A stretch of 64,000 nucleotides of DNA from Candidatus Nealsonbacteria bacterium (GTDB taxonomy: Bacteria; Patescibacteriota; Minisyncoccia; Minisyncoccales; JAGMDC01). Positions 7,579 to 23,076 of this stretch are shown piece after piece. The notes under the pieces were generated by a model, which saw only the letters and a list, made by a program, of their open reading frames with translations, did not search any database and was not told the origin of the DNA. The DNA is taken from contig JAUWMZ010000003.1 of the NCBI GenBank assembly GCA_030612885.1, forward strand, positions 69,578 through 133,577, read 5' to 3'. Position 1 is the stretch's first letter. Each line of letters begins with the position of its first letter. Both the position numbers and the translations under genes were made by a program.

Positions 7579-8610
7579 ATGGATATAAAAGCATTAATCT
7601 TAAAACACCTAAAAAAGAATAAGAAAGTTAAAGTTGCTGATATAGTTAAAGCAACTGGGTTTTCGCGCGCCTATATCAATAGATTCTTTAGGGAATTAGT
7701 AAATCAAGAAAAAATTGCTTTAATTGGAAAAGCAAACAGGGCTTATTATATTGAAGCTAAAAAGGGTGTTGTCCGAAAAACAAAAAGAGAAATTTTAAGT
7801 ATAAAACGGATTCTTAAGAACAAAAATCTTTCTGAATCTGATATTTTAGACCAAATTAAAAAAGATTGCGGGATATTTTTGGATTTACCAAAAAATATCG
7901 TTTCCATTTTGGATTACGCTTTTACTGAGATGTTAAACAATGCTATTGAACATTCTAATTCAAAAGAAATAGTTGTTATAATGGAAAAAAATAAACTTAG
8001 CGTCAATTTTGAAGTGATTGATTTTGGAATAGGTATTTTTAATAATTTGATGGCAAAAAGAGGATTAAAAAACGAATTAGAAGCAATTCAGGACCTTTTA
8101 AAAGGAAAACAAACCACTGTTCCTAAAGAACATACAGGCGAGGGCATTTTTTTTACTTCAAAAGTAGCTGACAGATTAATTATTAATAGCTCAACCAAGA
8201 AATTGATTATTGACAACCAGCTCAATGATATTTTTATTAAAGACATAAAAGCAATTAAAGGAACAAAAGTGCGGTTTGAAATTGGCAAAAAAGCTATGCA
8301 AAATTTAAATGCTGTATTTAGAAAATTTGCTGGAGATACATTTGAATTTAGTAAAACCGAAGTGACGGTCGACCTTTATCAGATGAATAATGTTTTCATT
8401 TCGCGTTCTCAAGCACGAAGAGTTCTTAGCGGATTGGACAAATTTAGAACAATAATTATTGATTTTAAGAATATTGAGGCCATTGGTCAATCTTTTGCTG
8501 ATGAAGTTTTTAGAGTTTGGCAAAGTCATCATTCAGGGATTGATATTAAGTATAAAAACGCTAATGAAAATGTGCTATTTATGATTAAACGAGCACAGGT
8601 TAAAAATTAA
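7579..8610 (+). CDS. Three-domain protein: N-terminal winged-HTH, GHKL (HATPase_c) ATPase, C-terminal STAS-like DUF4325
   Basis: wHTH: VKVADIVKATGFSRAYINRFFRELV. GHKL N box EMLNNAIEHS, G1 DFGIGIF, G2 GEGIFF. C-terminus SRSQARRVLSGLDKFRTIIIDFKNIEAIGQSFADEVFRVW is typical of DUF4325. Confidence 0.7.
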   Translation: MDIKALILKHLKKNKKVKVADIVKATGFSRAYINRFFRELVNQEKIALIGKANRAYYIEAKKGVVRKTKREILSIKRILKNKNLSESDILDQIKKDCGIFLDLPKNIVSILDYAFTEMLNNAIEHSNSKEIVVIMEKNKLSVNFEVIDFGIGIFNNLMAKRGLKNELEAIQDLLKGKQTTVPKEHTGEGIFFTSKVADRLIINSSTKKLIIDNQLNDIFIKDIKAIKGTKVRFEIGKKAMQNLNAVFRKFAGDTFEFSKTEVTVDLYQMNNVFISRSQARRVLSGLDKFRTIIIDFKNIEAIGQSFADEVFRVWQSHHSGIDIKYKNANENVLFMIKRAQVKN

Positions 8611-9548: not shown

Positions 9549-11363
9549 ATGGAGGAAAAGAAAAACAGAATAAAAGACTTACCTAAAATAGAACGACCTA
9601 GAGAAAAATTTCTCAAAAAAGGACCGGAGGCACTTTCAAAAAGTGATCTTTTAGCAATTTTGCTTGGAAGTGGAGTAAAGGGTAAAAATGTTCAAAAACT
9701 TGCGCAACAAATAATCAAAAAATTCGGCAAGGCTTTTTTGAACATTACAGTTGATGATTTGCTGAAAATTTCAGGTATTGGCCAAGTTAAAGCATTGCAA
9801 ATTGCATCAGCAATTTCTTTAGTAAAAAGATTTTATGAAGAAGAAAAAGGGAATGAAATTGTTATAAAAAATTCAAAGGATGTTATTTCTTTGACTTATG
9901 ATTTACGGGACAAGAAAAAGGAATATCTAATCTGTTTATATTTGAATGCAAGAAATGTTTTGATCAAAAAAGAAACAATATCAATCGGCACTCTTGATAA
10001 AAGTTTATTGCACCCAAGAGAGATTTTTTATCCAGCCGTTGAATTGAATTCCGCAAGTATTATTTTGGTACATAATCATCCCACAGGAGACCCAACTCCA
10101 AGCAAAGAAGACAACACAATTGTTGAAAAAATTGTTCAGGCCGGTGAAATAATGGGAATTTCTGTTATAGATTTTATTATTACTGCAAAGAACGGAAATT
10201 ATAGTTTTCATGAAGTCTTAAGAGGGGTTGATGAAAACATAGATTATGTTGCTGAAGGCGTTCAAGTAGGTTTGTTTGACTTTCTCGAAATCAAGAAACC
10301 AACATACGAAATAGATGCAAAAAAAATTAAGGAAAATTATTTTTATATTCCGCAAGTAAAACAAAATCATATTCAATTGCATAATCGTAGGTATATTGGC
10401 AGTAAACATAAATTAATAGAATGGATTTTTTCTGTTATCAATAAAGAGTGCGGAGGAGATTCTTTTGCTGATGTTTTTGCAGGAACGGGAATTGTGTCAG
10501 CTATAGCTACAAAACATTTTAAAAAAATTATACTAAACGATTTTCTTTATTCTAATTATGCAATATACCAAGCTTTTTTTGGAAATGGCGAATGGAATAA
10601 AAATAAAATAGACAACATTATCAAAGATTATAACAATATTTATGGAGAGGATTTAGAAGACAATTATTTTTCTAATTATTTTGGTGGTAAATATTTTAGC
10701 TATAATTCATCAAAAATTATTGGTTTCGTCAGGGAGAATATAGAGAAAAATAAAAATAATTTAACAAGCAGAGAATATTATATGCTTATTGCATCTTTGT
10801 TATATACGGTCGATAAAATTGCTAATACTGTCGGACATTACGATGCATATTTTAAAAAAGATTCTATAAATGATGATTTCTTTATGAAACCGATTGACCC
10901 TGTTAATGTTGATGAAATATCTATTTTTAGAGAAGATACGAACCTTTTGGTAAAAAAAATAAAAGCAGATGTAGTTTATATTGATCCGCCCTATAACTCC
11001 AGACAATATAGCCGGTTTTATCATGTACTTGAAACACTTACTAAATGGGATAAACCAAAATTACATGGAGTTGCATTAAAACCAGATCCAGAAAATATGA
11101 GTGATTATTGTAGAATCAATGCAAAGACTAGGTTTGCGGAACTTGTAAGGTATATTGATGCTCGGTATTTGGTTGTTTCATATAATAATACATATGACTC
11201 CAAAAGTAATTCATCAAAAAATAAAATTACGCTTCAAGAAATTGAAAAAATCTTACAGAGGAAAGGCAAAACTAAAGTCTTTGAAAAGGATTATAAGTAC
11301 TTTAACGCTGGAAACACAAATTTTAATAACCACAAAGAATATTTATTTGTCACTAAAGTTTAA
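9549..11363 (+). CDS. Fusion protein: full-length RadC-like JAB/MPN domain (about aa 1-225) plus a D12-class N6-adenine DNA methyltransferase
   Basis: RadC part: HhH ISGIGQVKALQI and JAMM motif LVHNHPTGDPTPSKED. MTase part: RRYIGSKHKL, FAGTGIVS (AdoMet site) and VVYIDPPYNSRQYSRFYH (DPPY catalytic motif). The frame is continuous across the junction. Confidence 0.8.
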   Translation: MEEKKNRIKDLPKIERPREKFLKKGPEALSKSDLLAILLGSGVKGKNVQKLAQQIIKKFGKAFLNITVDDLLKISGIGQVKALQIASAISLVKRFYEEEKGNEIVIKNSKDVISLTYDLRDKKKEYLICLYLNARNVLIKKETISIGTLDKSLLHPREIFYPAVELNSASIILVHNHPTGDPTPSKEDNTIVEKIVQAGEIMGISVIDFIITAKNGNYSFHEVLRGVDENIDYVAEGVQVGLFDFLEIKKPTYEIDAKKIKENYFYIPQVKQNHIQLHNRRYIGSKHKLIEWIFSVINKECGGDSFADVFAGTGIVSAIATKHFKKIILNDFLYSNYAIYQAFFGNGEWNKNKIDNIIKDYNNIYGEDLEDNYFSNYFGGKYFSYNSSKIIGFVRENIEKNKNNLTSREYYMLIASLLYTVDKIANTVGHYDAYFKKDSINDDFFMKPIDPVNVDEISIFREDTNLLVKKIKADVVYIDPPYNSRQYSRFYHVLETLTKWDKPKLHGVALKPDPENMSDYCRINAKTRFAELVRYIDARYLVVSYNNTYDSKSNSSKNKITLQEIEKILQRKGKTKVFEKDYKYFNAGNTNFNNHKEYLFVTKV

Positions 11364-11365
11364 AT

Positions 11366-12271
11366 ATGGATAGCAAAATCAAAAGATCCCCGCTATTCTA
11401 TGTCGGAGATAAATACAAGATAATGAGACAGATTAAAAATTTATTTCCTAAAGAAATAAATAATTTTTACGAGCCTTTTGTTGGTGGTGGTACTGTGTTT
11501 TTGAATATTGAGGCCAAAAAGTATTATCTAAATGATATAGATAAAAACCTTATTAATATACACAAGTTTTTAATTAAAAATTCAAGCAATCCAAATGAAT
11601 TTTTCAGAAGTATAAAAAAAATAATACGTAAATACAAATTATCTAGATCATATGAAGAGGATATAATTCCGGCTCGACTAAAGAAGAAATGGAAAAAAAC
11701 CTATTTTGCTAGATTCAACAAAGAAGGTTATGGAAAATTGAGGGAATGTGTCAATAAAAATAAAAAGAACGACCACTTAATTTTGTATGTTTTGCTTATC
11801 TACGGCTTTAATAGAATGCTGAGATTTAATGGCGGAGGTAAATTTAATCTTCCCGTGGGCAACGTTGATTTTAATAAAAACGTTGTTAATGCTCTAAATA
11901 ATTATTTTGATTTTGTGCATGGTAAAAAAATATCATTTTGCTCAAAAGATTTTAGAGGTTTTTTTTCTGGAAGAAAATACCTGAAAAACGATTTTGTTTA
12001 TTTGGATCCACCTTATTTAATTTCAGCAAGTGAATATAATAAATTTTGGGATAAAAAAGCTGAATATGATTTATTAAGTTCGATTGACGACTTGAATAAA
12101 AAAAGCGTTAAGTTTGCGTTGTCGAATATAACTCATTATAACGGGAATAAAAATAACTTGTTGATTAAATGGATGAAAAAATATAAAGCATATAAAATAA
12201 ATAGTAATTATATTAGCTATCACGACAATAAGAAAAAGAAAATCAAAGAGGTGTTAATTACTAATTCTTAA
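11366..12271 (+). CDS. Dam-family (D12 class) N6-adenine DNA methyltransferase
   Basis: FYVGDKYKIM..., FYEPFVGGGTVF (motif I) and FVYLDPPY (motif IV). Starts 2 nt after the preceding stop. Confidence 0.85.
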   Translation: MDSKIKRSPLFYVGDKYKIMRQIKNLFPKEINNFYEPFVGGGTVFLNIEAKKYYLNDIDKNLINIHKFLIKNSSNPNEFFRSIKKIIRKYKLSRSYEEDIIPARLKKKWKKTYFARFNKEGYGKLRECVNKNKKNDHLILYVLLIYGFNRMLRFNGGGKFNLPVGNVDFNKNVVNALNNYFDFVHGKKISFCSKDFRGFFSGRKYLKNDFVYLDPPYLISASEYNKFWDKKAEYDLLSSIDDLNKKSVKFALSNITHYNGNKNNLLIKWMKKYKAYKINSNYISYHDNKKKKIKEVLITNS

Positions 12272-12274
12272 CTT

Positions 12275-13813
12275 ATGGAGAAACGCCAGTCAGAATATAA
12301 GCCTTTATTATTCACAACGACACTTAGAAATCCCGAAAGATTGAAGTGGTTTTTAGGAGTGTTTAAAAATTATGATGGTAAAATTCTTACTAATGATTTA
12401 GCGAAAGAAATTGCTGGAGAAATAATAAGAATTGGATTGTATACTCCAACAAACTTGAGTGCATCTATAAAAAACAAAATAAAATCAAAAGAGCTTTTAA
12501 CTAATGAAGAAGTTTTAAAAGTTCTAAAAGATAATCCTCAAAATCATAAAGAAGCGGGTTTTAGCAAAGGATGGCCATCTAGATTTGATACTTGGTTCAA
12601 AATAGCAAAAGAATTGGGTTTCGTTTATTACAGGATTGGAGAAAAAATTAAATTTTCTGAGATTGGCTTAAAACTCATTAATAACAAGCATCCCGAATTT
12701 GAACAACAAGCATTCCTCAATGCTTTTGTAAAATATCAAAGCAATAATCCACTTAGACGCACATTAAATGAAAATGTCCCATTAATACTTCTACTTGAGG
12801 TAATTTCAAGATTGAATAAAGATAAAAATTTCAACGGAAGTGGTATCTCAAAATTAGAATTGCCATTAGTCATCTTTTGGAAAAATAATAATTCAGAAAA
12901 ATTATATCAATTAATAAAGGAGATAAGGAAAAAATACAGCTATAATCCAAGCTGGGAAGTAATCGTTGATATTTGTCTTAATCGAATCATGGAAGGTAAA
13001 TTTAAGAAATTCAATCATAAATCAATTATGATCGATTATCCGGATGAATTTATAAGAAAGATGAGACTCACGGGGTTAATTTCTTTAAGGGGCGGTGGTC
13101 GTTTTATTGATATCAACAAAAATGAACAGAAAAAAGTCAATTATGCTCTTAAAAATTATTCTAAATATAAGAAATACAAAACAGAAAAGGAATATTTTGT
13201 GTACATGGCAAGAATTGATAAGAGTTTGATTTTATCTGCAGCTAAGCCGGTAAGCGCGGATGAGAGAGACAAGTTTTTAGCTAAATGGATTAGTGTTTAT
13301 TCTTGGACTACGATTAAAGAAGAAATAATCAACTTGGCTAGAAAAAAATTAACAAAAGATGATATTCTAAAATATCTTTCAAATCCGATACGATTGGAAT
13401 TTCTTGTTGCCTTAGCAGTTAAATCCAAATTTTCAAATATAAAGGTTATACCTAATTATCCTTATGACGATGAGGGATTGCCGACCTCAACTGCTGGCGG
13501 TATAGGCGATAAAGGTGATATTGAATGCTACGAGGACATCAATAGAATTTTAATTGAGGTAACTATGTCCGAAGGAAGAACGCAAACAGTTATGGAGATA
13601 TGGCCCATAACCAGACATTTGGAAGAATTTAGTAAAAATAATGAGAACTCCATGTGTTATTTTGTTGCACCTAGTATATTTAAGGACTCGCAGAGACAAA
13701 TTGAATACGTGAAAGATAAAGAAAATCTTTTTATTCTGCCGAAAACTATTGAAGAATTTTTGAAACATATAAGTAACAGAGAAAAATTATTTTGTACCAT
13801 TAGTTCAAAATAA
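12275..13813 (+). CDS. Putative type II restriction endonuclease (possibly AlwI-like family)
   Basis: 512-aa ORF 3 nt downstream of two MTases. The C-terminal AGGIGDKGDIECYEDINRILIEVTMSEGRTQ has a D...E-x-T/K nuclease-like core. The AlwI-family assignment is from memory of the family pattern only. Confidence 0.5.
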   Translation: MEKRQSEYKPLLFTTTLRNPERLKWFLGVFKNYDGKILTNDLAKEIAGEIIRIGLYTPTNLSASIKNKIKSKELLTNEEVLKVLKDNPQNHKEAGFSKGWPSRFDTWFKIAKELGFVYYRIGEKIKFSEIGLKLINNKHPEFEQQAFLNAFVKYQSNNPLRRTLNENVPLILLLEVISRLNKDKNFNGSGISKLELPLVIFWKNNNSEKLYQLIKEIRKKYSYNPSWEVIVDICLNRIMEGKFKKFNHKSIMIDYPDEFIRKMRLTGLISLRGGGRFIDINKNEQKKVNYALKNYSKYKKYKTEKEYFVYMARIDKSLILSAAKPVSADERDKFLAKWISVYSWTTIKEEIINLARKKLTKDDILKYLSNPIRLEFLVALAVKSKFSNIKVIPNYPYDDEGLPTSTAGGIGDKGDIECYEDINRILIEVTMSEGRTQTVMEIWPITRHLEEFSKNNENSMCYFVAPSIFKDSQRQIEYVKDKENLFILPKTIEEFLKHISNREKLFCTISSK

Positions 13814-13861: not shown

Positions 13862-14725
13862 ATGTCATATCCTAAAACAATTAAAATTTATCTTGTTGAT
13901 GGTAAACCTGATGGAATTAAGACAGCAGAATTAAGTAATTGGGTGGGTAAAGCTATTGCTATACCGAGAAATAAGTTGAAAGATGTTAAAGAAAGAAAAG
14001 AATGTAATCAACCATCAATTTATTTTCTATTTGGTAAAGAAGACGAAAAATCTGTTTTGCCATATGTTTATATTGGTGAAGCTGAAATTTTATGGAAAAG
14101 ATTGATAACCCATGAAAGTAGCAAAGATTTTTGGCAAATGGCTGTTGCTTTTGTAAGTAAAGATAATAATTTAACTAAAGCTCATATTAAATATTTGGAG
14201 AGTTGTTGTTTGGGTATAGCAAAGTCAATATCTCGTTGTCTTTTGCAAAACACTTCTGAAAGTGCCTTGCCAAATCTTTCAGAATCCGACGTCTCTGAAA
14301 TGCAAGAATATTTGGATAATTTAAAAATCCTTTTAGCCAGTTTGGGATACCCTATTCTGCAAGAACCTGCGACAAGACAAGATAGAGACGTTGGAGTATT
14401 GCTTTATTGCCGAAGGAAAGGAGCCATAGGGATAGGTAGAATGACTAATGAGGGATTTATAGTTTATAAAAGTTCAACTGCCAGTACACAAATTAGTGAT
14501 GCTGTTAGAAAAAGAAATGAACACATTATTTCCTCTTTATTGCAATCCGGTCATATTAGTGAAATTTCAGATAAATTATTTAAGTTTGAAAAAGACTATC
14601 TTTTTAATAGTCCAAGTGCGGCTTCGGATTTAATAACGGGTAATTCTACGAGTGGCTGGGTATTATGGAAAACCAAACAAGGTAAAATTTTAAGGGAAGT
14701 AGAAAAGGATAAATTGAAAAATTAA
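13862..14725 (+). CDS. GIY-YIG nuclease domain protein with C-terminal DUF4357
   Basis: N-terminal SIYFLFG...YVYIGEAEILWKRL is GIY-YIG-like. C-terminal FNSPSAASDLITGNSTSGWVLWKT is typical of DUF4357. Confidence 0.7.
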   Translation: MSYPKTIKIYLVDGKPDGIKTAELSNWVGKAIAIPRNKLKDVKERKECNQPSIYFLFGKEDEKSVLPYVYIGEAEILWKRLITHESSKDFWQMAVAFVSKDNNLTKAHIKYLESCCLGIAKSISRCLLQNTSESALPNLSESDVSEMQEYLDNLKILLASLGYPILQEPATRQDRDVGVLLYCRRKGAIGIGRMTNEGFIVYKSSTASTQISDAVRKRNEHIISSLLQSGHISEISDKLFKFEKDYLFNSPSAASDLITGNSTSGWVLWKTKQGKILREVEKDKLKN

Positions 14726-14729
14726 AAAA

Positions 14730-14807
14730 ATTGACCAGTTAGTTTATAAACTTTATGGATTAACGAAAGAGGAGATTAAAATTGTTAGAAAAGAGTATGG
14801 TAAATAA
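14730..14807 (+). pseudogene. Remnant: last 25 codons of a type IIG / N6-MTase-type R-M gene
   Basis: IDQLVYKLYGLTKEEIKIVRKEYGK* is the stereotyped C-terminal tail (lVyxLYgLTeeEI) of Eco57I/TaqI-like and PglX-like enzymes. No upstream body is present. Confidence 0.6.
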
Positions 14808-15630
14808 AAAAACATATATCAATGAGCAGAAAATTTATTGGGACATTGAGGCCCCGATTCTTTATGATTATGTAAATTTTGCCAACCGACTACGGCCGTT
14901 ACAGATTCTTGATAATCAACATAAAAAGTATGGCATGCGGCAAGATGTCAAAAGAATGTATCTTGTGTTGTTTACCGAATTATATCAAAAGAGCCTTGAG
15001 GATTTAGCTGTTATTTTGCTCGCATTATACCGACGCTTTAATACTGATATGGCTTGTACATATCAGAAAAAGTTTAAGCAAAAAACTACGCCGGTTACTT
15101 ACACACTTATTAATTATAAAATAAAAGAAGCCACAATAAAAAATATTACTGATAAGTGTGTTTCAGAAAATGATTTTATTGGCAAACTACACATAGATGA
15201 TTTGGCTACACTTAATATAAATCTGTTATTGCCCCTTTTGGATATTCACGCATTTTACAGCGAACTTTATCAAAATATTCTCGCTTGGAAAAATGATCAA
15301 GAAAAGAGATTCCGAATTTATAACAAAATCAAACACGGAGCCGCTGTGGTGGGTAGTGCAAAAATTCTCAATAGTAAAAACGAGAATGCGCCAGCAGTAA
15401 TCTATGCGGATAAGGATGCGAATCTGACAGATCATCCGTTAATAGTTCATAGTCTTCATTTCATAAAAGACGAGTTTATTTTGCTCCAAAATGGGGTAGT
15501 GAAAGTCAGTGATTGTATTAGGGACCTTTTGGCTATTTATCTTTGCAAAAATTACCCAGACTTTTTAAAGAAACAAGGTTTTTCGTCGCCGTTGTTATTC
15601 TTTCAACAACGAAGACCATCTAATTCATAG
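14797..15630 (+). CDS. Hypothetical protein with a possible HEPN-like Rx6H motif
   Basis: ATG at 14797; the TTG start listed at 14782 overlaps the remnant. Contains KRFRIYNKIKHGAAV. No firm family assignment. Confidence 0.45.
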   Translation: MVNKKTYINEQKIYWDIEAPILYDYVNFANRLRPLQILDNQHKKYGMRQDVKRMYLVLFTELYQKSLEDLAVILLALYRRFNTDMACTYQKKFKQKTTPVTYTLINYKIKEATIKNITDKCVSENDFIGKLHIDDLATLNINLLLPLLDIHAFYSELYQNILAWKNDQEKRFRIYNKIKHGAAVVGSAKILNSKNENAPAVIYADKDANLTDHPLIVHSLHFIKDEFILLQNGVVKVSDCIRDLLAIYLCKNYPDFLKKQGFSSPLLFFQQRRPSNS

Positions 15631-15746
15631 AGGGAGGGAAAAAATATATTGGATTAATTCTATTTTCTGACACCACCCGAATTGAATCTGAGGGAATTTT
15701 AACTAAGTAATCAATTTTAGATAAAGCATTTAAAAAAATAAAAAAT

Positions 15747-16520
15747 ATGAGTCCTAATATTTTAATGGCTATAGCTACTGGAGTTATGGCGATATTTACA
15801 GTTTTAACTTTTTATTTAAATTATTGGCAACAGAAACAATTTAAAAATCCTGTTCCTCAAATTTATTTTTCAGAACCCCAAATAATGGCTATTTCCAAAA
15901 CGGAAGATAAAAAGATTTTAATAAATTTTCTAGTTTATTTTCTTAATTCAGGAACATCACCAATTATAGGATCTGGAATCGAGCATAGAATTAGCAATAT
16001 AGAAACTGGAGAAAAGTATAAATTTGGCAAAACAAGATTTTTCGGAGACCAAGATAAACCTTTCGGCGTGACAATTCCAGAACTTTATAAGCTCTTACCG
16101 AGAATTAAAAAAATCCAAGATTTTTATGGCTTTGAGCAAATGTTTAAAATTTTTTATGGGGAAATTATGGAAAAATACGGTATCGAAATATTTAGTCCAT
16201 ATCCTATGCAAAAAGTCGAAGATTTATGGTCACTAAAGGGACAAACCCTGAAAGAAGATTATATTTCAGAAACAGAACTAGATTCTTATTGGGTGATCTC
16301 GCCGTACAAATTAAAGATAAAAAGGTATTATATTAAAGTGCCGTATAGTAAAGAAAAATATTACTCTTTCAAAGTAAAATTAATACTACATTATTATTGC
16401 GGAAGTAAAGCAAACGAAATTTTGAGATCTAAAGAATTTAAAATTAAACCAGTGATAATTGGTAAAAGTTTATGTTTTTATGAAAATGAACTAAAAACAA
16501 GGAAAGTATCTCACGAGTAA
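15747..16520 (+). CDS. Hypothetical protein with an N-terminal TM helix
   Basis: MSPNILMAIATGVMAIFTVLTFYL is followed by a soluble domain. No motif recognised. Confidence 0.45.
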   Translation: MSPNILMAIATGVMAIFTVLTFYLNYWQQKQFKNPVPQIYFSEPQIMAISKTEDKKILINFLVYFLNSGTSPIIGSGIEHRISNIETGEKYKFGKTRFFGDQDKPFGVTIPELYKLLPRIKKIQDFYGFEQMFKIFYGEIMEKYGIEIFSPYPMQKVEDLWSLKGQTLKEDYISETELDSYWVISPYKLKIKRYYIKVPYSKEKYYSFKVKLILHYYCGSKANEILRSKEFKIKPVIIGKSLCFYENELKTRKVSHE

Positions 16521-16619
16521 TAAATTTTAACCAATCAATTTTAGCTAAAGTGAAAAAAATAGTGTCAACTCTATTTTTAGAAGTCAAATAAAAGGTCAAA
16601 GAAATAATTAAATAAAATT

Positions 16620-17102
16620 ATGGAGAAAGCAGAATTTATATTAGCAGTGAAAAATATATTCAATAGTTGCCGGAATCTATCTAAACTTTCGGGCGGGGTA
16701 CGCAAATTTACTCCTGACGGCAGGATGGTTGGTGATATCGGAGAGGTAATAGCTAGTGTTTTTTATCGAGTTAACTTACATAACGTGGGTCGTCATGATT
16801 GGGATGGTGTCTATAACAGTAAAAACGTACAGATAAAAGCAACTGGTGGAGATAGTACATATCTTAGAGAACCGCCTAAAGATGGTTTTGCTGATGGTTT
16901 ATTGATGGTATTTAAGATTGATCGAGAAAGTGGTAAATATGAACTTATTTACAACGGGGATATTCAACGCGTTTGGGATGCGTTAAATAGCATAAATACC
17001 GATAGGACTGGCTCTAAGATGATTTCGTTAAATCGTCTTAGAAAATTACAAAAATTTGTCTATCCTGAAAATATTATTCCAGTCAGGCAAAAAATGGGTT
17101 AA
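16620..17102 (+). CDS. Small PD-(D/E)xK-like (restriction-endonuclease-fold, DUF6998-like) protein
   Basis: GDIGEVIA ... HDWDG ... VQIKAT resembles an E / D / (E/Q)xK arrangement. The gene is visibly more G+C-rich than its neighbours. Confidence 0.4.
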   Translation: MEKAEFILAVKNIFNSCRNLSKLSGGVRKFTPDGRMVGDIGEVIASVFYRVNLHNVGRHDWDGVYNSKNVQIKATGGDSTYLREPPKDGFADGLLMVFKIDRESGKYELIYNGDIQRVWDALNSINTDRTGSKMISLNRLRKLQKFVYPENIIPVRQKMG

Positions 17103-17202: not shown

Positions 17203-17643
17203 ATGGCTCAAGATATACATATTTGGGAAAAAGAAATATATGATTGGGGAGAGTTAATGAAATTAAATCGCAGAGAAGGTGAGATTAAAAATAATAAAGA
17301 AGAATTTTATCCTTTTGGTAACTTCTCTCAACTTGAGGGAAGTTTGGCACACACAGAAGATTTTGAATTAAAATACTGGATTTTTCAGAAAAATAAAAAT
17401 GCATGTCATGATGAAAAGAAACAGAAAAAATCTACAGAGTATACCTTTCTTATAAAAGGTAGGGTTAAGGGATGGATAAAAAATAAGGTAGGAAAGAAAG
17501 AGGAAATTAATATGAATTCAGGGGATTGTATAATAATAAAACCTGGTTATTGTAGTAATTTAGTAGAAGAGGTTATAGAGGATTCTGAAGGAGTTACAAT
17601 AAAAGTTCCTAGTGACCCTAAAGATACTAAGAGACCGTGTTGA
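17203..17643 (+). CDS. Hypothetical protein, possibly cupin-like
   Basis: 146-aa ORF. Beta-rich C-terminal half (YTFLIKGRVKGWI...GDCIIIKPGY...GVTIKVP). Confidence 0.4.
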   Translation: MAQDIHIWEKEIYDWGELMKLNRREGEIKNNKEEFYPFGNFSQLEGSLAHTEDFELKYWIFQKNKNACHDEKKQKKSTEYTFLIKGRVKGWIKNKVGKKEEINMNSGDCIIIKPGYCSNLVEEVIEDSEGVTIKVPSDPKDTKRPC

Positions 17644-17725
17644 GAAAAAATAGGAGTCAGCTCTGTTTTTACAAACAGAAAGTTGAACTCTCTTTCGTTG
17701 AAACTACGGACGGGCAGGGGATTAA
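17644..17725 (+). repeat. Intergenic module, copy 1 (left block GAAAAAATAGGAGTCAGCTCTGTTTTT, right block AAACTACGGACGGGCAGGGGATTAA)
   Basis: The same two blocks, with a different 27-31 nt centre, recur at 18534-18609. The right block ends 4-6 nt before an ATG in both copies. Confidence 0.85.
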
Positions 17726-17731
17726 TTAATA

Positions 17732-17911
17732 ATGGAAAATAAACAATATAAATGTAAAAAATGTGGTTGCAAAATGAAAAAGAGTGGCCCTTATTTGCCA
17801 CGGAAAGAAGAGGGCGAACCAGCGCATAAAGGACATTTACCAGTTTATTATTGTTGTATGAATGAAAATTGCGATAATTTTATGAAAAGCATTGGAGTAT
17901 TAGAGAAATAA
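17732..17911 (+). CDS. Small zinc-ribbon protein (59 aa; below the ORF-track cutoff)
   Basis: MENKQYKCKKCGCKMKKSGPYLPRKEEGEPAHKGHLPVYYCCMNENCDNFMKSIGVLEK* with CxxC ... CxxxxC. GGGGA lies 11 nt upstream. Confidence 0.5.
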   Translation: MENKQYKCKKCGCKMKKSGPYLPRKEEGEPAHKGHLPVYYCCMNENCDNFMKSIGVLEK

Positions 17912-17915
17912 ATCT

Positions 17916-18533
17916 ATGAAAGAAAAAATCAAGAGATGGTTTAGTTGGCTTTGGAAAAAATTTTTGGGGAAAAAGGAAATTAAGAAATTATCAAATGAAG
18001 AATTCAAGCTTCTTGTTGGTACTTTAAGCTTTACTTATCGGCAATTCTGTTTTAATAAAATTGGGCATAAAAAAATTGACGATAAACCTTGGGAAAATTT
18101 TAAAGACATATGGAGTCATATTCTTATTAGTTGGCGACATTACTATTTAATAAATTTAGCAAAAATTTTTGATAAAAAATCCTATAATACGAGGAATGGC
18201 AAGAAAATCACTCTTTCTATTTTTCGTGCTATACCCAAATCTAAATTTAGTGCAGACGATAAGGAAACTATTAAAAAAATTATGCGAGTTCGGAATGAAA
18301 TGTTAGCTCATCTTGAAGCAGAAAAAGTATTACAGGGAAAAAGGAACGAAGAAGCTTACGGATTGGACTTTGAAGGCAAGCAGATTGAATCTCTAATTGG
18401 CAACACTTTTAAATTGCTTAATCAGATAAGATGGGATTATGGCTTTCCTTATGAATTAAATCAACGCCAACAAAAAAATGATGCTGAAAAAGAATTTGAT
18501 AAGTGGTATAAGGTTTTTAAAGAAGCACAATAG
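17916..18533 (+). CDS. HEPN-like (AbiU2-type) protein candidate
   Basis: MRVRNEMLAHLE contains the Rx4-6H HEPN signature (R-N-x-x-x-A-H). Alpha-helical, 205 aa. Confidence 0.4.
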   Translation: MKEKIKRWFSWLWKKFLGKKEIKKLSNEEFKLLVGTLSFTYRQFCFNKIGHKKIDDKPWENFKDIWSHILISWRHYYLINLAKIFDKKSYNTRNGKKITLSIFRAIPKSKFSADDKETIKKIMRVRNEMLAHLEAEKVLQGKRNEEAYGLDFEGKQIESLIGNTFKLLNQIRWDYGFPYELNQRQQKNDAEKEFDKWYKVFKEAQ

Positions 18534-18609
18534 GAAAATAGGAGTCAGCTCTGTTTTTTAGAGCAAATCAAACCCCAGTAGTATAAACTACGGACGGGCA
18601 GGGGATTAA
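18534..18609 (+). repeat. Intergenic module, copy 2
   Basis: GAAAATAGGAGTCAGCTCTGTTTTTT ... AAACTACGGACGGGCAGGGGATTAA; see copy 1. Confidence 0.85.
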
Positions 18610-18613
18610 AATT

Positions 18614-19339
18614 ATGGAAAACAAAAAGAATTTATTAAAGAATTTGTTAGGGTTGTTTATTGGATTTTTGGTTGTTTTATTTTATCTGTTTGGAGTAGAT
18701 TTTTATCAGGACCAGTCATATACTTTGGAGACAGAAGAGGTTGAAGTCCAGGTAGAAAGAGTAATTGACGGAGACACAATCCAAGTTAGGGAACTTCAAA
18801 GTGATGAGGTTTTTAATGTTCGCTATTTGGGAATTGATACTCCAGAGCTTGAGGGTCAGGATTATGAATCTTGCTTTGCGTCACAGGCGACAGAGAGAAA
18901 TGAGGACCTGGTTTTAGATAAAAAAGTGATTTTGGAATTTGATATTGATAAATATGATAGATTTGGCAGAACCCTGGCTTATGTTTATACTTTAGATGAA
19001 TTTGGCGAAAAGCAAACCTTTGTTAATCTTGAACTTTTGCAAGAAGGTTATGCCAGATTTTATCTTGATAAACAAAATACTCTTTATCAGGATGAATTTG
19101 TTCAAGCAGTTCTCACAGCTCAGGAAGATTTTTTAGGGATTTGGGGTTCTTGCGGGGAAGCAAGTTTTGACGTAAAATGTATGATTAAGGGTAATATAGA
19201 TCGTCTGGGTCAAAAATATTATCATCTTCCTGGAGATAAATATTATTCTTCTACCAAAATTAATCCCCTTAAAGAGGACCACTGGCTCTGTACCATTGAA
19301 GAGGCAGAGGCCAAAAACTTCCATAGAGCCCTTCAATGA
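18614..19339 (+). CDS. Membrane-anchored thermonuclease (SNase/micrococcal nuclease family)
   Basis: N-terminal TM helix. VIDGDTIQV, YLGIDTPE and DRFGRTLAYVY are SNase motifs. The C-terminal CMIKGNIDRLGQKYYHLPGDKYYSSTKI...WLCTIEEAEAKNF is the conserved Cys-containing tail. Confidence 0.9.
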   Translation: MENKKNLLKNLLGLFIGFLVVLFYLFGVDFYQDQSYTLETEEVEVQVERVIDGDTIQVRELQSDEVFNVRYLGIDTPELEGQDYESCFASQATERNEDLVLDKKVILEFDIDKYDRFGRTLAYVYTLDEFGEKQTFVNLELLQEGYARFYLDKQNTLYQDEFVQAVLTAQEDFLGIWGSCGEASFDVKCMIKGNIDRLGQKYYHLPGDKYYSSTKINPLKEDHWLCTIEEAEAKNFHRALQ

Positions 19340-19994: not shown

Positions 19995-20846
19995 ATGAAA
20001 AAATCTATTTATGTAATTAATTTCAGAGGGGAAAGAAAGCCGTTTTCTTTAAGGAAAGTTTACCGGGGAGCCAGGAAAGTGGGCGCTTCAAAGAAATTGG
20101 CTCAAGAGATTAGCCAAGTTATTCAAATGGAGGCCTATCCCGGTATCAAAACCTTAGAGATTTTTAAGAGGATAAAAGAACTTTTAAATCGCGAATCCCT
20201 TAAATTAGGAATAAAATTTTCTTTAAAAGAAGGAATGAAAAAATTGGGGCCCAGCGGTTTTCCCTTTGAGAAATTTATTGGAGAAATTTTCTTCAGACAG
20301 GGATATGAGGTTAAATTAAATCAATATCTTCAGGGCGATTGCTTGAAATATGAAATTGATTTTTTAGCCAAAAAAGGAAATTTGCTTTATGTCGGCGAGT
20401 GCAAATTCAGACATTTATTGGAAGAAGGGCGGGTTCATTCAGAAACTGCTTTGGCTTATTTGGCTAAAACTTTAGATATAAGGAAAGGAAATGTACTTAA
20501 GAGAAAAGAGTTTAATGGCTTTGATGTAAGGCCTATTTTGGTTACTAACGCTAAATTTACCAAGTCAGCGGCTAAATATTCAAGATGCGCAGGGATTGAG
20601 CTTCTGGGCTGGAAATGTCCTAAATCAGGAGGCCTGGAATATATAATTGATAAAAACGGTTTTTATCCTATAACTATTTTGCCTTCTTTAAAGAAAGATT
20701 TAGCTGAGGTTTTTATCAAGAGAAAAATGGTTTTAGCAAAAGATGTTTTAAAAATTAATCCTCAAAAATTTTCAGAGCAAACAGGAATCCCTGAAAAAAA
20801 CTTAAATTCTTTAATAAAAGAAGCTAAAATTTTATTTGAAGCATAA
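19995..20846 (+). CDS. ATP-cone domain fused to an Mrr-like restriction endonuclease domain
   Basis: N-terminal ATP-cone-like YVINFRGERKPFSLRKVYRGARKVG. Centre GFPFEKFIGEIFFRQGYEV...YEIDFLAKKGNLLYVGECKFR is a D...E-x-K core. Confidence 0.65.
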   Translation: MKKSIYVINFRGERKPFSLRKVYRGARKVGASKKLAQEISQVIQMEAYPGIKTLEIFKRIKELLNRESLKLGIKFSLKEGMKKLGPSGFPFEKFIGEIFFRQGYEVKLNQYLQGDCLKYEIDFLAKKGNLLYVGECKFRHLLEEGRVHSETALAYLAKTLDIRKGNVLKRKEFNGFDVRPILVTNAKFTKSAAKYSRCAGIELLGWKCPKSGGLEYIIDKNGFYPITILPSLKKDLAEVFIKRKMVLAKDVLKINPQKFSEQTGIPEKNLNSLIKEAKILFEA

Positions 20847-20856
20847 TTAAAAATAT

Positions 20857-21876
20857 ATGGAGGAACAACAAAGAATTCAAAGGTTTTTACAAGAATTTTC
20901 TAAAAAATTAGCAGAAAAATTTAATAAAGATTTGGATTTTATTTTGCTGTTTGGCAGTGCGGCAAGAGGGGAGTGGAAAAGAGGAATAAGCGATGTGGAC
21001 TTGATAATTCAGGTCAAAAAACTGGAATCAGTGAAAGAGGTAAAAGAATATACAGACAAGATATTTTGGAAATTAGATGAGAAATATGATACTAAACTCA
21101 AAGAATCCTGCTCTGTAGGCGATAAAAAAGATGAAGTTAAAAAGGTATTAGAAAAGACCAAACTTTATGTCCCATATGAAATTTTCGGGCCAGCAGACAT
21201 AGATTGGGTAAACGGCAAAATAAAGAGGAAGGACTTATCACTGGGAGCAAAGTTAGTGGCTCCCCAATCTATGCTCTTTAAGAAAATGAAATACGAGGGC
21301 AAGATTTTATGGGGAAGGGATGTAAGAAAAATAATTCAGGCTAAGGCAAACTGGTGGGAGAAATTCAAAGCCATTTTAATACCATACCATATCGCCCTTT
21401 CTTCTGTTTTAGGGGCTTTATTTGTTCCAAAAATTTGCTTGAAAATGGCTGATAAAGCGGCTATTTACTCCATAGAATCTGTTTTGTTCTTTTTAGACAA
21501 ACCAATTGGAGGGGGCATAAAAAAAGCTACAGAAAAAATAGAAAAAGAAATAAAGAGAAAAGTTAGATATAGGCATAGTTTCTTGGGAACTATGGAAATT
21601 GATTTAGTATTAAATTTTGATTATCAAAAATTATTGAATTTTAATTTTGCAAAAGAAGCTATAGAGCTTAAATACAACTGGGTAGAGCAATCCAAAAAAT
21701 TTGACAGATGGAAAACCTTGAAATTTTGCTGCAGGTCTCTGCTTTTCGTGAATACTATGAACTGGTATGCTATATTCAAAGCAGACAGACATCGTATAAC
21801 CTTAAAGCTGTTATTTGTTTTTAGGACAATCCTATTGTTTTTAATAATCTGGTTGTATTTTCGTTATTTTAGATAA
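20857..21876 (+). CDS. Minimal (MNT/KNTase-type) nucleotidyltransferase with a helical, membrane-associated C-terminal region
   Basis: LLFGSAARGEWKRGISDVDLII has the GS...RG...DxD polymerase-beta NTase motif. The C-terminus has hydrophobic helices (LLFVFRTILLFLIIWLYF). Confidence 0.7.
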   Translation: MEEQQRIQRFLQEFSKKLAEKFNKDLDFILLFGSAARGEWKRGISDVDLIIQVKKLESVKEVKEYTDKIFWKLDEKYDTKLKESCSVGDKKDEVKKVLEKTKLYVPYEIFGPADIDWVNGKIKRKDLSLGAKLVAPQSMLFKKMKYEGKILWGRDVRKIIQAKANWWEKFKAILIPYHIALSSVLGALFVPKICLKMADKAAIYSIESVLFFLDKPIGGGIKKATEKIEKEIKRKVRYRHSFLGTMEIDLVLNFDYQKLLNFNFAKEAIELKYNWVEQSKKFDRWKTLKFCCRSLLFVNTMNWYAIFKADRHRITLKLLFVFRTILLFLIIWLYFRYFR

Positions 21877-21927
21877 TCACGGTAAAATAAAATGGGGTCA
21901 ACTCTGAATTCAAAAACAATTTTAAAT

Positions 21928-22122: not shown

Positions 22123-23076
22123 ATGGATGTGATATGGAATTTGACGAAAGTTTGTCCATGGGATTGTGTAGTCTGTTCTGTCTCCGCTCTCCATGTTTGT
22201 GATACAACTGCGGACTATGTCTATTTAAAGCAGAAAGAAGAGGGTAAAGAACTTACTCTTGCCGAAAAGCTAATAGTGTTGAAATCCTTAGTTGATAGGG
22301 ATTTTAGCATCGATTTTTCCGGTGGGGATCCATTGTATTATAATGAGGATTTTCGAATAGTAGAACAAGCTACTCGTTGGTTGCCATCGCAAAAAATCAG
22401 TGTTAGTATGACAGGTAGTAATCTTACCGATGCCAAGTTAGAACTTCTAAAGAAAGTTGGTGCAGTAGAGTTTACCTTGGATAACCTTTTAGGAACAGAG
22501 AACCCTTTTCGGCCTCGCGGGTATAATCTTGCCTCAATGATGGCAATGAAAAAGTGTATTGCAGTAGGAATAAAAGTTCGAGCCATTACAGTTCTCTATC
22601 AAACTACAATATCTCAAGAGAATCTTGAAGATGTATACCATTGGTTATGTGAAAGTGCCATTTCAGAATGGGAACTATTGAGATTTTATCCAGTGGGAAG
22701 GAGCGTTGAACTTTCAAGACTTACTCCTTCTAATTCAGAATATCTGAGTACAATGAAGTTTTTGCGAGGATTACATGGATCTACTAAAATTTTCTTCCAG
22801 CATTCACTTAGAATACTAAAAGAAGGTATAAAATGTCCTGCAGTTGTAGAATCTATTGGCATTCTTCCGGGCGGAGAAGTAACGGCTTGTGCTTGGGCGA
22901 TGGATGATAATACGCGACCATTTAAAGAATTTTATCTTGGTAAATTACCGGAGGATGATTTAGGTGAAATTATTGATAGAGCACGGAGAATTCCAGAATA
23001 TTCTGAGAGAGTAAAATTTTGTCGAACAATTGCATATATTGAGAAAAAACACAAGAAAAGGGAGGGAACAATATGA
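22123..23076 (+). CDS. Radical SAM enzyme with a Cys-containing C-terminal (SPASM/twitch-like) region
   Basis: CPWDCVVC (CX3CX2C), FSGGDPL, C-terminal CPAVVES...VTACAWA. Visibly more G+C-rich than the surroundings. Confidence 0.75.
   Translation: MDVIWNLTKVCPWDCVVCSVSALHVCDTTADYVYLKQKEEGKELTLAEKLIVLKSLVDRDFSIDFSGGDPLYYNEDFRIVEQATRWLPSQKISVSMTGSNLTDAKLELLKKVGAVEFTLDNLLGTENPFRPRGYNLASMMAMKKCIAVGIKVRAITVLYQTTISQENLEDVYHWLCESAISEWELLRFYPVGRSVELSRLTPSNSEYLSTMKFLRGLHGSTKIFFQHSLRILKEGIKCPAVVESIGILPGGEVTACAWAMDDNTRPFKEFYLGKLPEDDLGEIIDRARRIPEYSERVKFCRTIAYIEKKHKKREGTI

Follow-up and report, generated by a model that had tools for sequence, protein, structure and literature searches.

Genes A, B and C, three adjacent genes in a defence island of a Candidatus Nealsonbacteria contig, are probably three independent single-gene cassettes lying side by side rather than subunits of one system. 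They are found in a stretch of 64,000 nucleotides (contig JAUWMZ010000003.1, positions 69,578 to 133,577 of the forward strand; hereafter the window), which has a low G+C content (32.6%) and whose genes resemble those of Patescibacteria, also termed the Candidate Phyla Radiation (CPR). A preliminary description made from the sequence had combined the three genes into a candidate undescribed defence module. Its coordinates, and the shared orientation of the genes, agree with our check of the open reading frames (ORFs; lengths in amino acids, aa):

14797..15630, forward strand: gene A, 277 aa; 33 homologues, 83 representative clusters
15747..16520, forward strand: gene B, 257 aa, one N-terminal transmembrane helix and a conserved domain of ~220 aa; only 10 homologous clusters
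16620..17102, forward strand: gene C, 160-aa DUF6998 protein, PD-QxK (Mrr-like); Pfam DUF6998 E 2.6e-30

The homologues of A, B and C, whose named sources include Candidatus Uhrbacteria, Andersenbacteria and Staskawiczbacteria, are of equal length at 40-86% identity, and the three are therefore real genes. Gene A has an alternative start, a TTG at 14782 preceded by AGGAG.

Independent occurrence of genes A, B and C

We used tblastn to look in independent loci for 13 island proteins, namely A, B, C and ten of their neighbours in the window. For A, five long contigs from exact-protein look-ups together with 33 metagenome loci gave 37 with an A homologue; for C, 80 loci from different species were drawn from 145 species genomes confirmed via two peptide patterns of C; for B, whose family comprises only 10 homologous clusters at 90% identity, the sample was five independent contexts. 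Neither B, C nor any other window gene was found in the A loci (0/37), neither A nor B in the C loci (0/80), and neither A nor C in the B contexts (0/5). The arrangement recurs only on a contig pair from one other assembly, with 99-100% protein identity, which by this measure is the same strain as the window. Apart from this repeat the triad was never found together in other genomes. This is the observation that the preliminary description had itself named as speaking against its module, and by that standard the module idea fails; what had looked like a new three-gene system can be struck off. In the assembly with the repeat (ERZ4220366), an independent one of the same population, one contig stops just after A and another starts 81 nt upstream of B, the break falling inside the A-B spacer (window ~15631-15746); it may reflect strain heterogeneity at the junction.

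All-against-all clustering of neighbouring ORFs revealed no conserved partner of A, where the biggest cluster is PDC-S39-like (3/37 loci), or of C, where it is McrC (6/80 loci). Genes encoding 306-326 aa downstream of A in three loci were considered as one shared partner and rejected, being mutually non-homologous. Within the window, the spacers measure 116 nt (A-B), 99 nt (B-C) and 100 nt (C to the next gene), compared to 2-3 nt between the genes of the adjacent, tightly packed restriction-modification (R-M) operon, and we observed no operon-like tight spacing or translational coupling across the three genes. Scans for promoter and terminator consensus sequences were uninformative, with counts equal to shuffled expectation. 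The family sizes are far apart, at 83 representative clusters for A (profile search), 10 clusters for B and 145 species genomes for C. In agreement with the earlier statement that the set matches no named system, A, B and C each matched 0 families of PADLOC-DB v2.0.0 at E<=0.1. The G+C content of C had been called distinctly higher than that of its neighbours and taken as a sign of separate acquisition. We reject this argument, as C at 36.4% is no outlier against the window ORF mean of 32.6% (sd 3.3), and an equal or higher G+C content is seen in 8 of the 57 ORFs.

Gene B is flanked by a direct repeat:

15704..15726, forward strand: upstream copy of a 23-nt direct repeat, TAAGTAATCAATTTTAGATAAAG, 87% identical to the downstream copy
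16528..16550, forward strand: downstream copy

At another locus (L008), a B homologue is bracketed by a different repeat, 26 nt long and terminator-like (hairpin and T-tract; 88%), at 9923-9948 and 10923-10948. These flanking direct repeats suggest that B moves as a single-gene cassette, whose insertion would duplicate the target sequence.

Gene C and the PD-QxK nucleases

Judged from sequence and structural model, gene C most likely encodes a PD-QxK endonuclease that stands alone, a DUF6998 member related to the BisI family. The GE...HDWDG...VQIKAT arrangement that had prompted a comparison with PD-(D/E)xK nucleases is present, and this comparison is supported by the DUF6998 match, the structural neighbours of an AlphaFold2 model and the invariance of the catalytic residues. 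The label 'unknown', on the other hand, no longer applies to a protein whose Pfam family also holds a characterised restriction enzyme. The protein (160 aa, isoelectric point 9.6) scores 105.5 bits against Pfam DUF6998 (gathering cut-off 27, E 2.6e-30) and covers model positions 2-132 of 136. Using the Eco15I_Ntd and NhoI sequences from the supplement of PMC11347163, we found that Eco15I_Ntd also exceeds the cut-off (41.3 bits, E 1.9e-10), while NhoI falls below it (21.2 bits). NhoI and Eco15I are BisI-family enzymes dependent on 5-methylcytosine and belong to the 'PD-QXK' (Mrr-like) subgroup (PMC11347163). Their active sites consist of 'WD'/'AD' and 'QVK'/'QIK' motifs and a Glu in helix alpha1, and mutating these abolishes activity (PMC11347163). 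In hhalign the C profile aligned with Eco15I at a probability of 87% (E 4e-6) and with NhoI at 46%, both over a 44-column catalytic core, and its best match among PDB sequences, though weak (E 0.64), was likewise the Eco15I catalytic core.

Residue conservation follows the same active site. In a profile of 57 C homologues D33, G38, G41, E42, D62, Q71 and T75 are invariant and K73 nearly so; in a joint alignment of C homologues with Eco15I and NhoI the invariant positions are G38, D39, E42, D62, Q71 and K73. The catalytic set of C, comprising E42, D62 (within W-D) and Q71-I-K73, aligns with both enzymes and matches the 'WD' and 'QIK' motifs whose mutation abolishes Eco15I activity (PMC11347163). 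The AlphaFold2 model of C (predicted local distance difference test score, pLDDT, 91; predicted template-modelling score, pTM, 0.87) has helices at 3-23 and 34-48, five strands and two C-terminal helices. When it was compared with the PDB using Foldseek, the top match was NhoI (probability 0.92-0.95, template-modelling (TM) score 0.47-0.50), moderate support at an E of about 0.03, and Eco15I_Ntd was found at a probability of 0.63. These were followed by Hjc, DpnI, the SPARDA nuclease, I-Ssp6803I, PvuII, EcoRV and BcnI, all of which have PD-(D/E)xK folds. The region C-terminal to QxK could not be reliably aligned with either NhoI or Eco15I, and a comparison of the DNA- and methyl-recognition residues of NhoI (Asn42, Ser98, Arg101, Ser137, His139 and Thr144) met with the same unreliable alignment past this motif.

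Homologues of C are patchily scattered over many phyla and plasmids. Their commonest neighbours are McrC, as given above, and McrB (4/80 loci), as well as type ISP R-M enzymes, and in an integrase-bearing element a homologue of 86% identity also has a type ISP enzyme nearby. This scattered distribution, the lack of a conserved partner and the McrBC and type ISP neighbours fit a stand-alone nuclease of defence islands. Searches of C by tblastn gave no match in the phage collection, and the matched places on plasmids were annotated only as 'hypothetical protein' or carried no feature. We postulate that C is a small PD-QxK endonuclease, probably a homodimer, from the family to which the Eco15I N-terminal catalytic domain belongs, and that it most likely acts alone as a restriction-type DNase. 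By analogy, it would be a type IV/IIM enzyme that depends on modification, cutting invading DNA that is modified and working without a cognate methylase; its specificity, like its modification dependence, is proposed from this analogy, since no alignment reaches the C-terminal half, where NhoI recognises GCNGC and its methyl groups. A literature search for DUF6998 found no mention of the family among the papers covered. With the Eco15I catalytic domain among its members, DUF6998 gains a function and is best taken for a family of PD-QxK restriction-type nucleases that occurs in many phyla, CPR bacteria among them.

Genes A and B and the alternative readings

Gene A matched no family in Pfam, PADLOC, NCBIfam or PHROGs, and tblastn found no match in the phage and plasmid collections. 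A profile search over 1.84 billion representatives returned 83 relatives, nearly all single-domain proteins of 250-300 aa, and none of 53 relatives scanned contained an informative Pfam domain. Across 53 divergent relatives only E68, K179 and H180 are invariant, with D69, Y/F175, N176, K177 and G181 strongly conserved, giving the motif (Y/F)NKxKHG. The AlphaFold2 model, built from 32 sequences (pLDDT 91.7, pTM 0.90), consists mainly of helices, the long ones spanning 50-81, 150-180 and 224-252, and has a single beta-hairpin at 200-219. Foldseek found no neighbour of this model in the PDB (best E 1.5, TM score <0.2) and no viral structural neighbour in BFVD. Among PDB sequences, a weak match of the A profile (E 0.005) to 8u0u and further 'Helicase/UvrB N-terminal domain' proteins of 1190 aa was rejected because the two matching segments are non-collinear (E 0.84 and 140), and matches to casein kinases (E about 0.2-0.5) were dismissed as chance. 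These data suggest that A represents an uncharacterised family of soluble, all-alpha, stand-alone proteins, whose invariant Glu and Lys-His-Gly point to an enzymatic centre; an enzymatic mechanism is proposed solely from the invariant Glu and Lys-His.

The neighbours of A vary from locus to locus. In the window A comes after PDC-S14. Elsewhere, one homologue adjoins a PD-T4-6-like Ser/Thr kinase; another, in a serine-recombinase element, has an HNH effector-like PDC-M68A protein as its neighbour; a third follows an AriA-like ATPase in an element that also carries a serine recombinase, a primase, DUF5659 and HTH_17; in two loci the homologue comes directly after PDC-S39-like proteins with Mrr nearby; and one is near Mrr-NA-iREase1 and a recombinase. 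A distant relative precedes an HmaC-like ATPase. Three further homologues adjoin housekeeping genes, and at locus L108 (1832-7892) two RHS-repeat proteins enclose a homologue of 55% identity within an array of small ORFs, a polymorphic-toxin-like locus that is unlike the other contexts. The varied pattern speaks for A as an autonomous gene linked to defence islands or mobile elements. That it keeps recurring among diverse defence genes, and in the cargo of integrative elements, would make A a candidate single-gene defence or toxin protein.

Gene B, as had been described, encodes a membrane protein with one predicted N-terminal transmembrane helix (Kyte-Doolittle 19-residue maximum 2.13 at residues 5-23); longer homologues have two. 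Lysines come after the last transmembrane helix, and under the positive-inside rule the C-terminal domain is thus predicted to be cytoplasmic. Conserved residues include an invariant EH(R) (E79-H80), R97, D103 and HYYCG. Beyond the helix there was no match in Pfam, NCBIfam, PADLOC or PHROG, the B profile gave only noise against PDB sequences (E>=0.4), and tblastn against the phage and plasmid collections found nothing. B stands beside R-M genes in 3/5 contexts. At locus L014 (379-5601), and at a second such locus, a homologue of 60% identity lies between a type III Mod methylase and a Res helicase-nuclease with gaps of 3-6 nt; another lies downstream of a type IIG R-M enzyme, behind an HTH_17 gene; and two are alone among housekeeping genes. 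In the window B is 2 kb from the AlwI system. Taken together, B is a rare protein with a membrane anchor and a predicted cytoplasmic domain, its gene recurring next to or within R-M operons, and could act as an accessory or an independent abortive infection (Abi)-like factor.

The preliminary description had read A as a possible HEPN ribonuclease on account of an Rx6H-like motif, RIYNKIKHG, which is indeed present at residues 173-181. Its histidine and the preceding lysine (H180 and K179) are invariant, but the motif arginine is not conserved: position 173 (H-7) is R or K in 25/32 close homologues and in 22/53 wider relatives, the others having A, D, S, E or Q, and no conserved R exists at H-5 or H-6 in the family. 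No Pfam HEPN model matched A at E<=0.1, hhalign of A with the neighbouring AbiU2 HEPN gave a probability of 0.4%, and Foldseek returned no HEPN structure, the best match containing a HEPN domain being Csx1 (E=4.4, TM score 0.15). With its motif arginine unconserved and with no HEPN profile or AbiU2 match, A is therefore not a canonical HEPN. A could still be a divergent HEPN-type ribonuclease, acting as a single-gene Abi toxin in which a helix-end N-K-x-K-H replaces the canonical Rx4-6H. In favour of this, A is mostly alpha-helical and found in defence islands, and the invariant H180 ends the long helix 150-180 with a beta-hairpin after it; position H-7 is often R or K, and close homologues keep R171 (H-9) without exception. 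Given that the wider family has no conserved arginine anywhere from H-4 to H-7, and given the failed profile and structure comparisons, we regard this as unlikely. Less likely still, in our estimation, is that A is no defence effector but serves polymorphic-toxin loci or mobile elements as an immunity-type or accessory protein. The RHS-flanked homologue and the several homologues in serine-recombinase elements would suit that role, but the RHS context is one among about 14, most neighbours are defence genes and not toxins, and a 277-aa protein whose polar E, K and H stay invariant over relatives of 20% identity looks catalytic rather than binding-only. At its most ambitious, the reading of A as a separate gene would have it found an undescribed single-gene anti-phage or toxin family with a new all-alpha fold, a Glu/Lys-His catalytic centre unrelated to HEPN and a life as integrative-element cargo through CPR and other bacteria, with B possibly a new membrane-anchored R-M accessory factor in view of its place between Mod and Res of a type III operon; we hold this to be possible but doubtful.

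For C, the alternative to a stand-alone modification-dependent enzyme is that it serves an ordinary type II R-M pair as its nuclease, or acts outside defence as a DNA-repair or resolvase nuclease. PvuII, EcoRV, BcnI and Hjc are among the structural matches, the C-terminal recognition half is unrelated to those of NhoI and Eco15I, and two BisI homologues cut unmodified DNA (PMC4926085). Yet no methyltransferase cluster recurs beside C in the 80 loci, where only McrBC and type ISP do, and a housekeeping resolvase would hardly be patchy across phyla and carried on plasmids, which makes this alternative improbable. As for the triad itself, a lineage-specific three-component defence or abortive-infection module, in which A as an RNase, B as a membrane effector and C as a DNase work jointly, would agree with three co-oriented, adjacent genes inside a defence island and with the retention of their order in a second assembly. 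That assembly is, however, the same strain, and the absence of co-occurrence from every independent context, the great differences in family size, the spacers of ~100 nt, the 23-nt repeat that B has to itself and the rejection of a HEPN in A leave this module close to refuted and highly improbable. Some points also weigh against our own reading of A, B and C as separate cassettes with defence-related roles. Comparative data alone would be compatible with a lineage-specific functional interaction of the adjacent genes; the similarity of C to BisI enzymes is limited to the N-terminal catalytic core, with the recognition half of NhoI left unaligned; a clear defence link is seen in only about half of the ~14 informative A contexts, the others being housekeeping surroundings or the RHS toxin array; and the case for B draws on just five independent contexts and their sequences.

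Of the two genes, A is the better lead. It is tractable, being a confidently folded and structurally orphan family that recurs next to different defence genes, and B comes second as a rare membrane protein whose gene can occur within a type III R-M operon. Candidates of this sort are typical for single-gene defence screens, and neither is surprising biology.

The surrounding island and known systems

The defence-island setting that had been described for the triad was confirmed with Pfam and PADLOC, with an R-M locus and PDC-S14 upstream and HEPN_AbiU2, SNase and Mrr_cat genes downstream:

9549..11363, forward strand: RadC-like JAB domain with a Dam-class (D12) N6-adenine DNA methyltransferase; Pfam UPF0758_N, RadC and MethyltransfD12; PADLOC MTase_II 1.4e-125
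11366..12271, forward strand: second Dam-class methyltransferase of the R-M locus; Pfam MethyltransfD12 3.4e-29; PADLOC MTase_II 8.6e-108
12275..13813, forward strand: AlwI-family type IIS restriction endonuclease; Pfam RE_AlwI 1.3e-42; PADLOC REase_II 1.7e-126
13862..14725, forward strand: PDC-S14 candidate single-gene defence protein with a DUF4357 C-terminus; PADLOC PDC-S14 8.5e-101; Pfam DUF4357 5e-16
17203..17643, forward strand: 146-aa protein adjoining C; weak phrog_24762 match 5.2e-6
17647..17725, forward strand: duplicated intergenic unit, first copy, with exact 24-nt and 25-nt repeats
17916..18533, forward strand: HEPN_AbiU2 abortive-infection-type protein; Pfam HEPN_AbiU2 3.4e-10
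18535..18609, forward strand: duplicated intergenic unit, second copy
18614..19339, forward strand: secreted or membrane staphylococcal-nuclease homologue with a C-terminal 'sunset' domain; Pfam SNase 3.3e-19; NCBIfam sunset domain 5.6e-8
19995..20846, forward strand: Mrr_cat / AF1548-like_C restriction-endonuclease-like protein; Pfam AF1548-like_C 2.4e-10, Mrr_cat 3.4e-4

An FKBP gene also lies downstream. The protein adjoining C was not found beside C homologues in the 80 C loci. The first gene of the AlwI-type R-M operon is an unusual fusion, its JAB part (with UPF0758_N and HhH) being joined to a Dam-class methyltransferase. The duplicated intergenic unit, whose exact repeats are AAAATAGGAGTCAGCTCTGTTTTT (24 nt) and AAACTACGGACGGGCAGGGGATTAA (25 nt), flanks a small Zn-ribbon-like ORF (~17732-17914) and HEPN_AbiU2. 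Both ORFs downstream of the unit start MENK, and the arrangement has the look of an inserted cassette whose arrival duplicated the region upstream of SNase. The 24-mer recurs in degenerate form after gene B (16555-16578) and after a nucleotidyltransferase gene (21895-21905). Further possible defence genes are this nucleotidyltransferase (20857-21876), with weak likeness to MntA and to cyclases of cyclic-oligonucleotide-based anti-phage signalling systems (CBASS), a radical-SAM protein (22123-23076) with weak likeness to the viperin family and, upstream, an HTH-HATPase_c_2-DUF4325 protein (7579-8610). In three CPR integrative elements from our loci (L017, L019 and L135), a common backbone of an integrase or large serine recombinase, DUF5659 and then an HTH_17 gene is followed by a variable cargo slot that holds R-M or defence genes, among them a C homologue in L017, an A homologue in L019 and a B homologue in L135.

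Among known systems, the PADLOC 'PDC-S' families (such as PDC-S14 in the window, and PDC-S39) are the closest in kind to A and B, being uncharacterised single genes whose function is evidenced only by recurrent location in defence islands near varied systems; A and B differ in belonging to no PADLOC v2.0.0 model. The HEPN superfamily, for example AbiU2 in the window, shares with A a helical build, a histidine motif at a helix end, residence in defence islands and single-gene organisation. It differs in its defining Rx4-6H arginine and in showing no profile or structural match to A, which is also larger and has an extra beta-hairpin. Gene C most resembles the BisI family (BisI, NhoI and Eco15I). 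Like C, these are single genes without a cognate methylase, of similar size (150-190 aa; PMC4926085), with two N-terminal helices followed by a beta-sheet core and an E / (W)D / Q-I/V-K active site, and Eco15I_Ntd passes the gathering score of DUF6998. In contrast, NhoI itself stays under that threshold, profile methods align only about 44 core columns, the C-terminal half with which NhoI reads GCNGC and methyl groups has no counterpart in C, and the spacing D-x8-QxK in C compares with D-x10-12 reported for BisI enzymes (PMC4926085).

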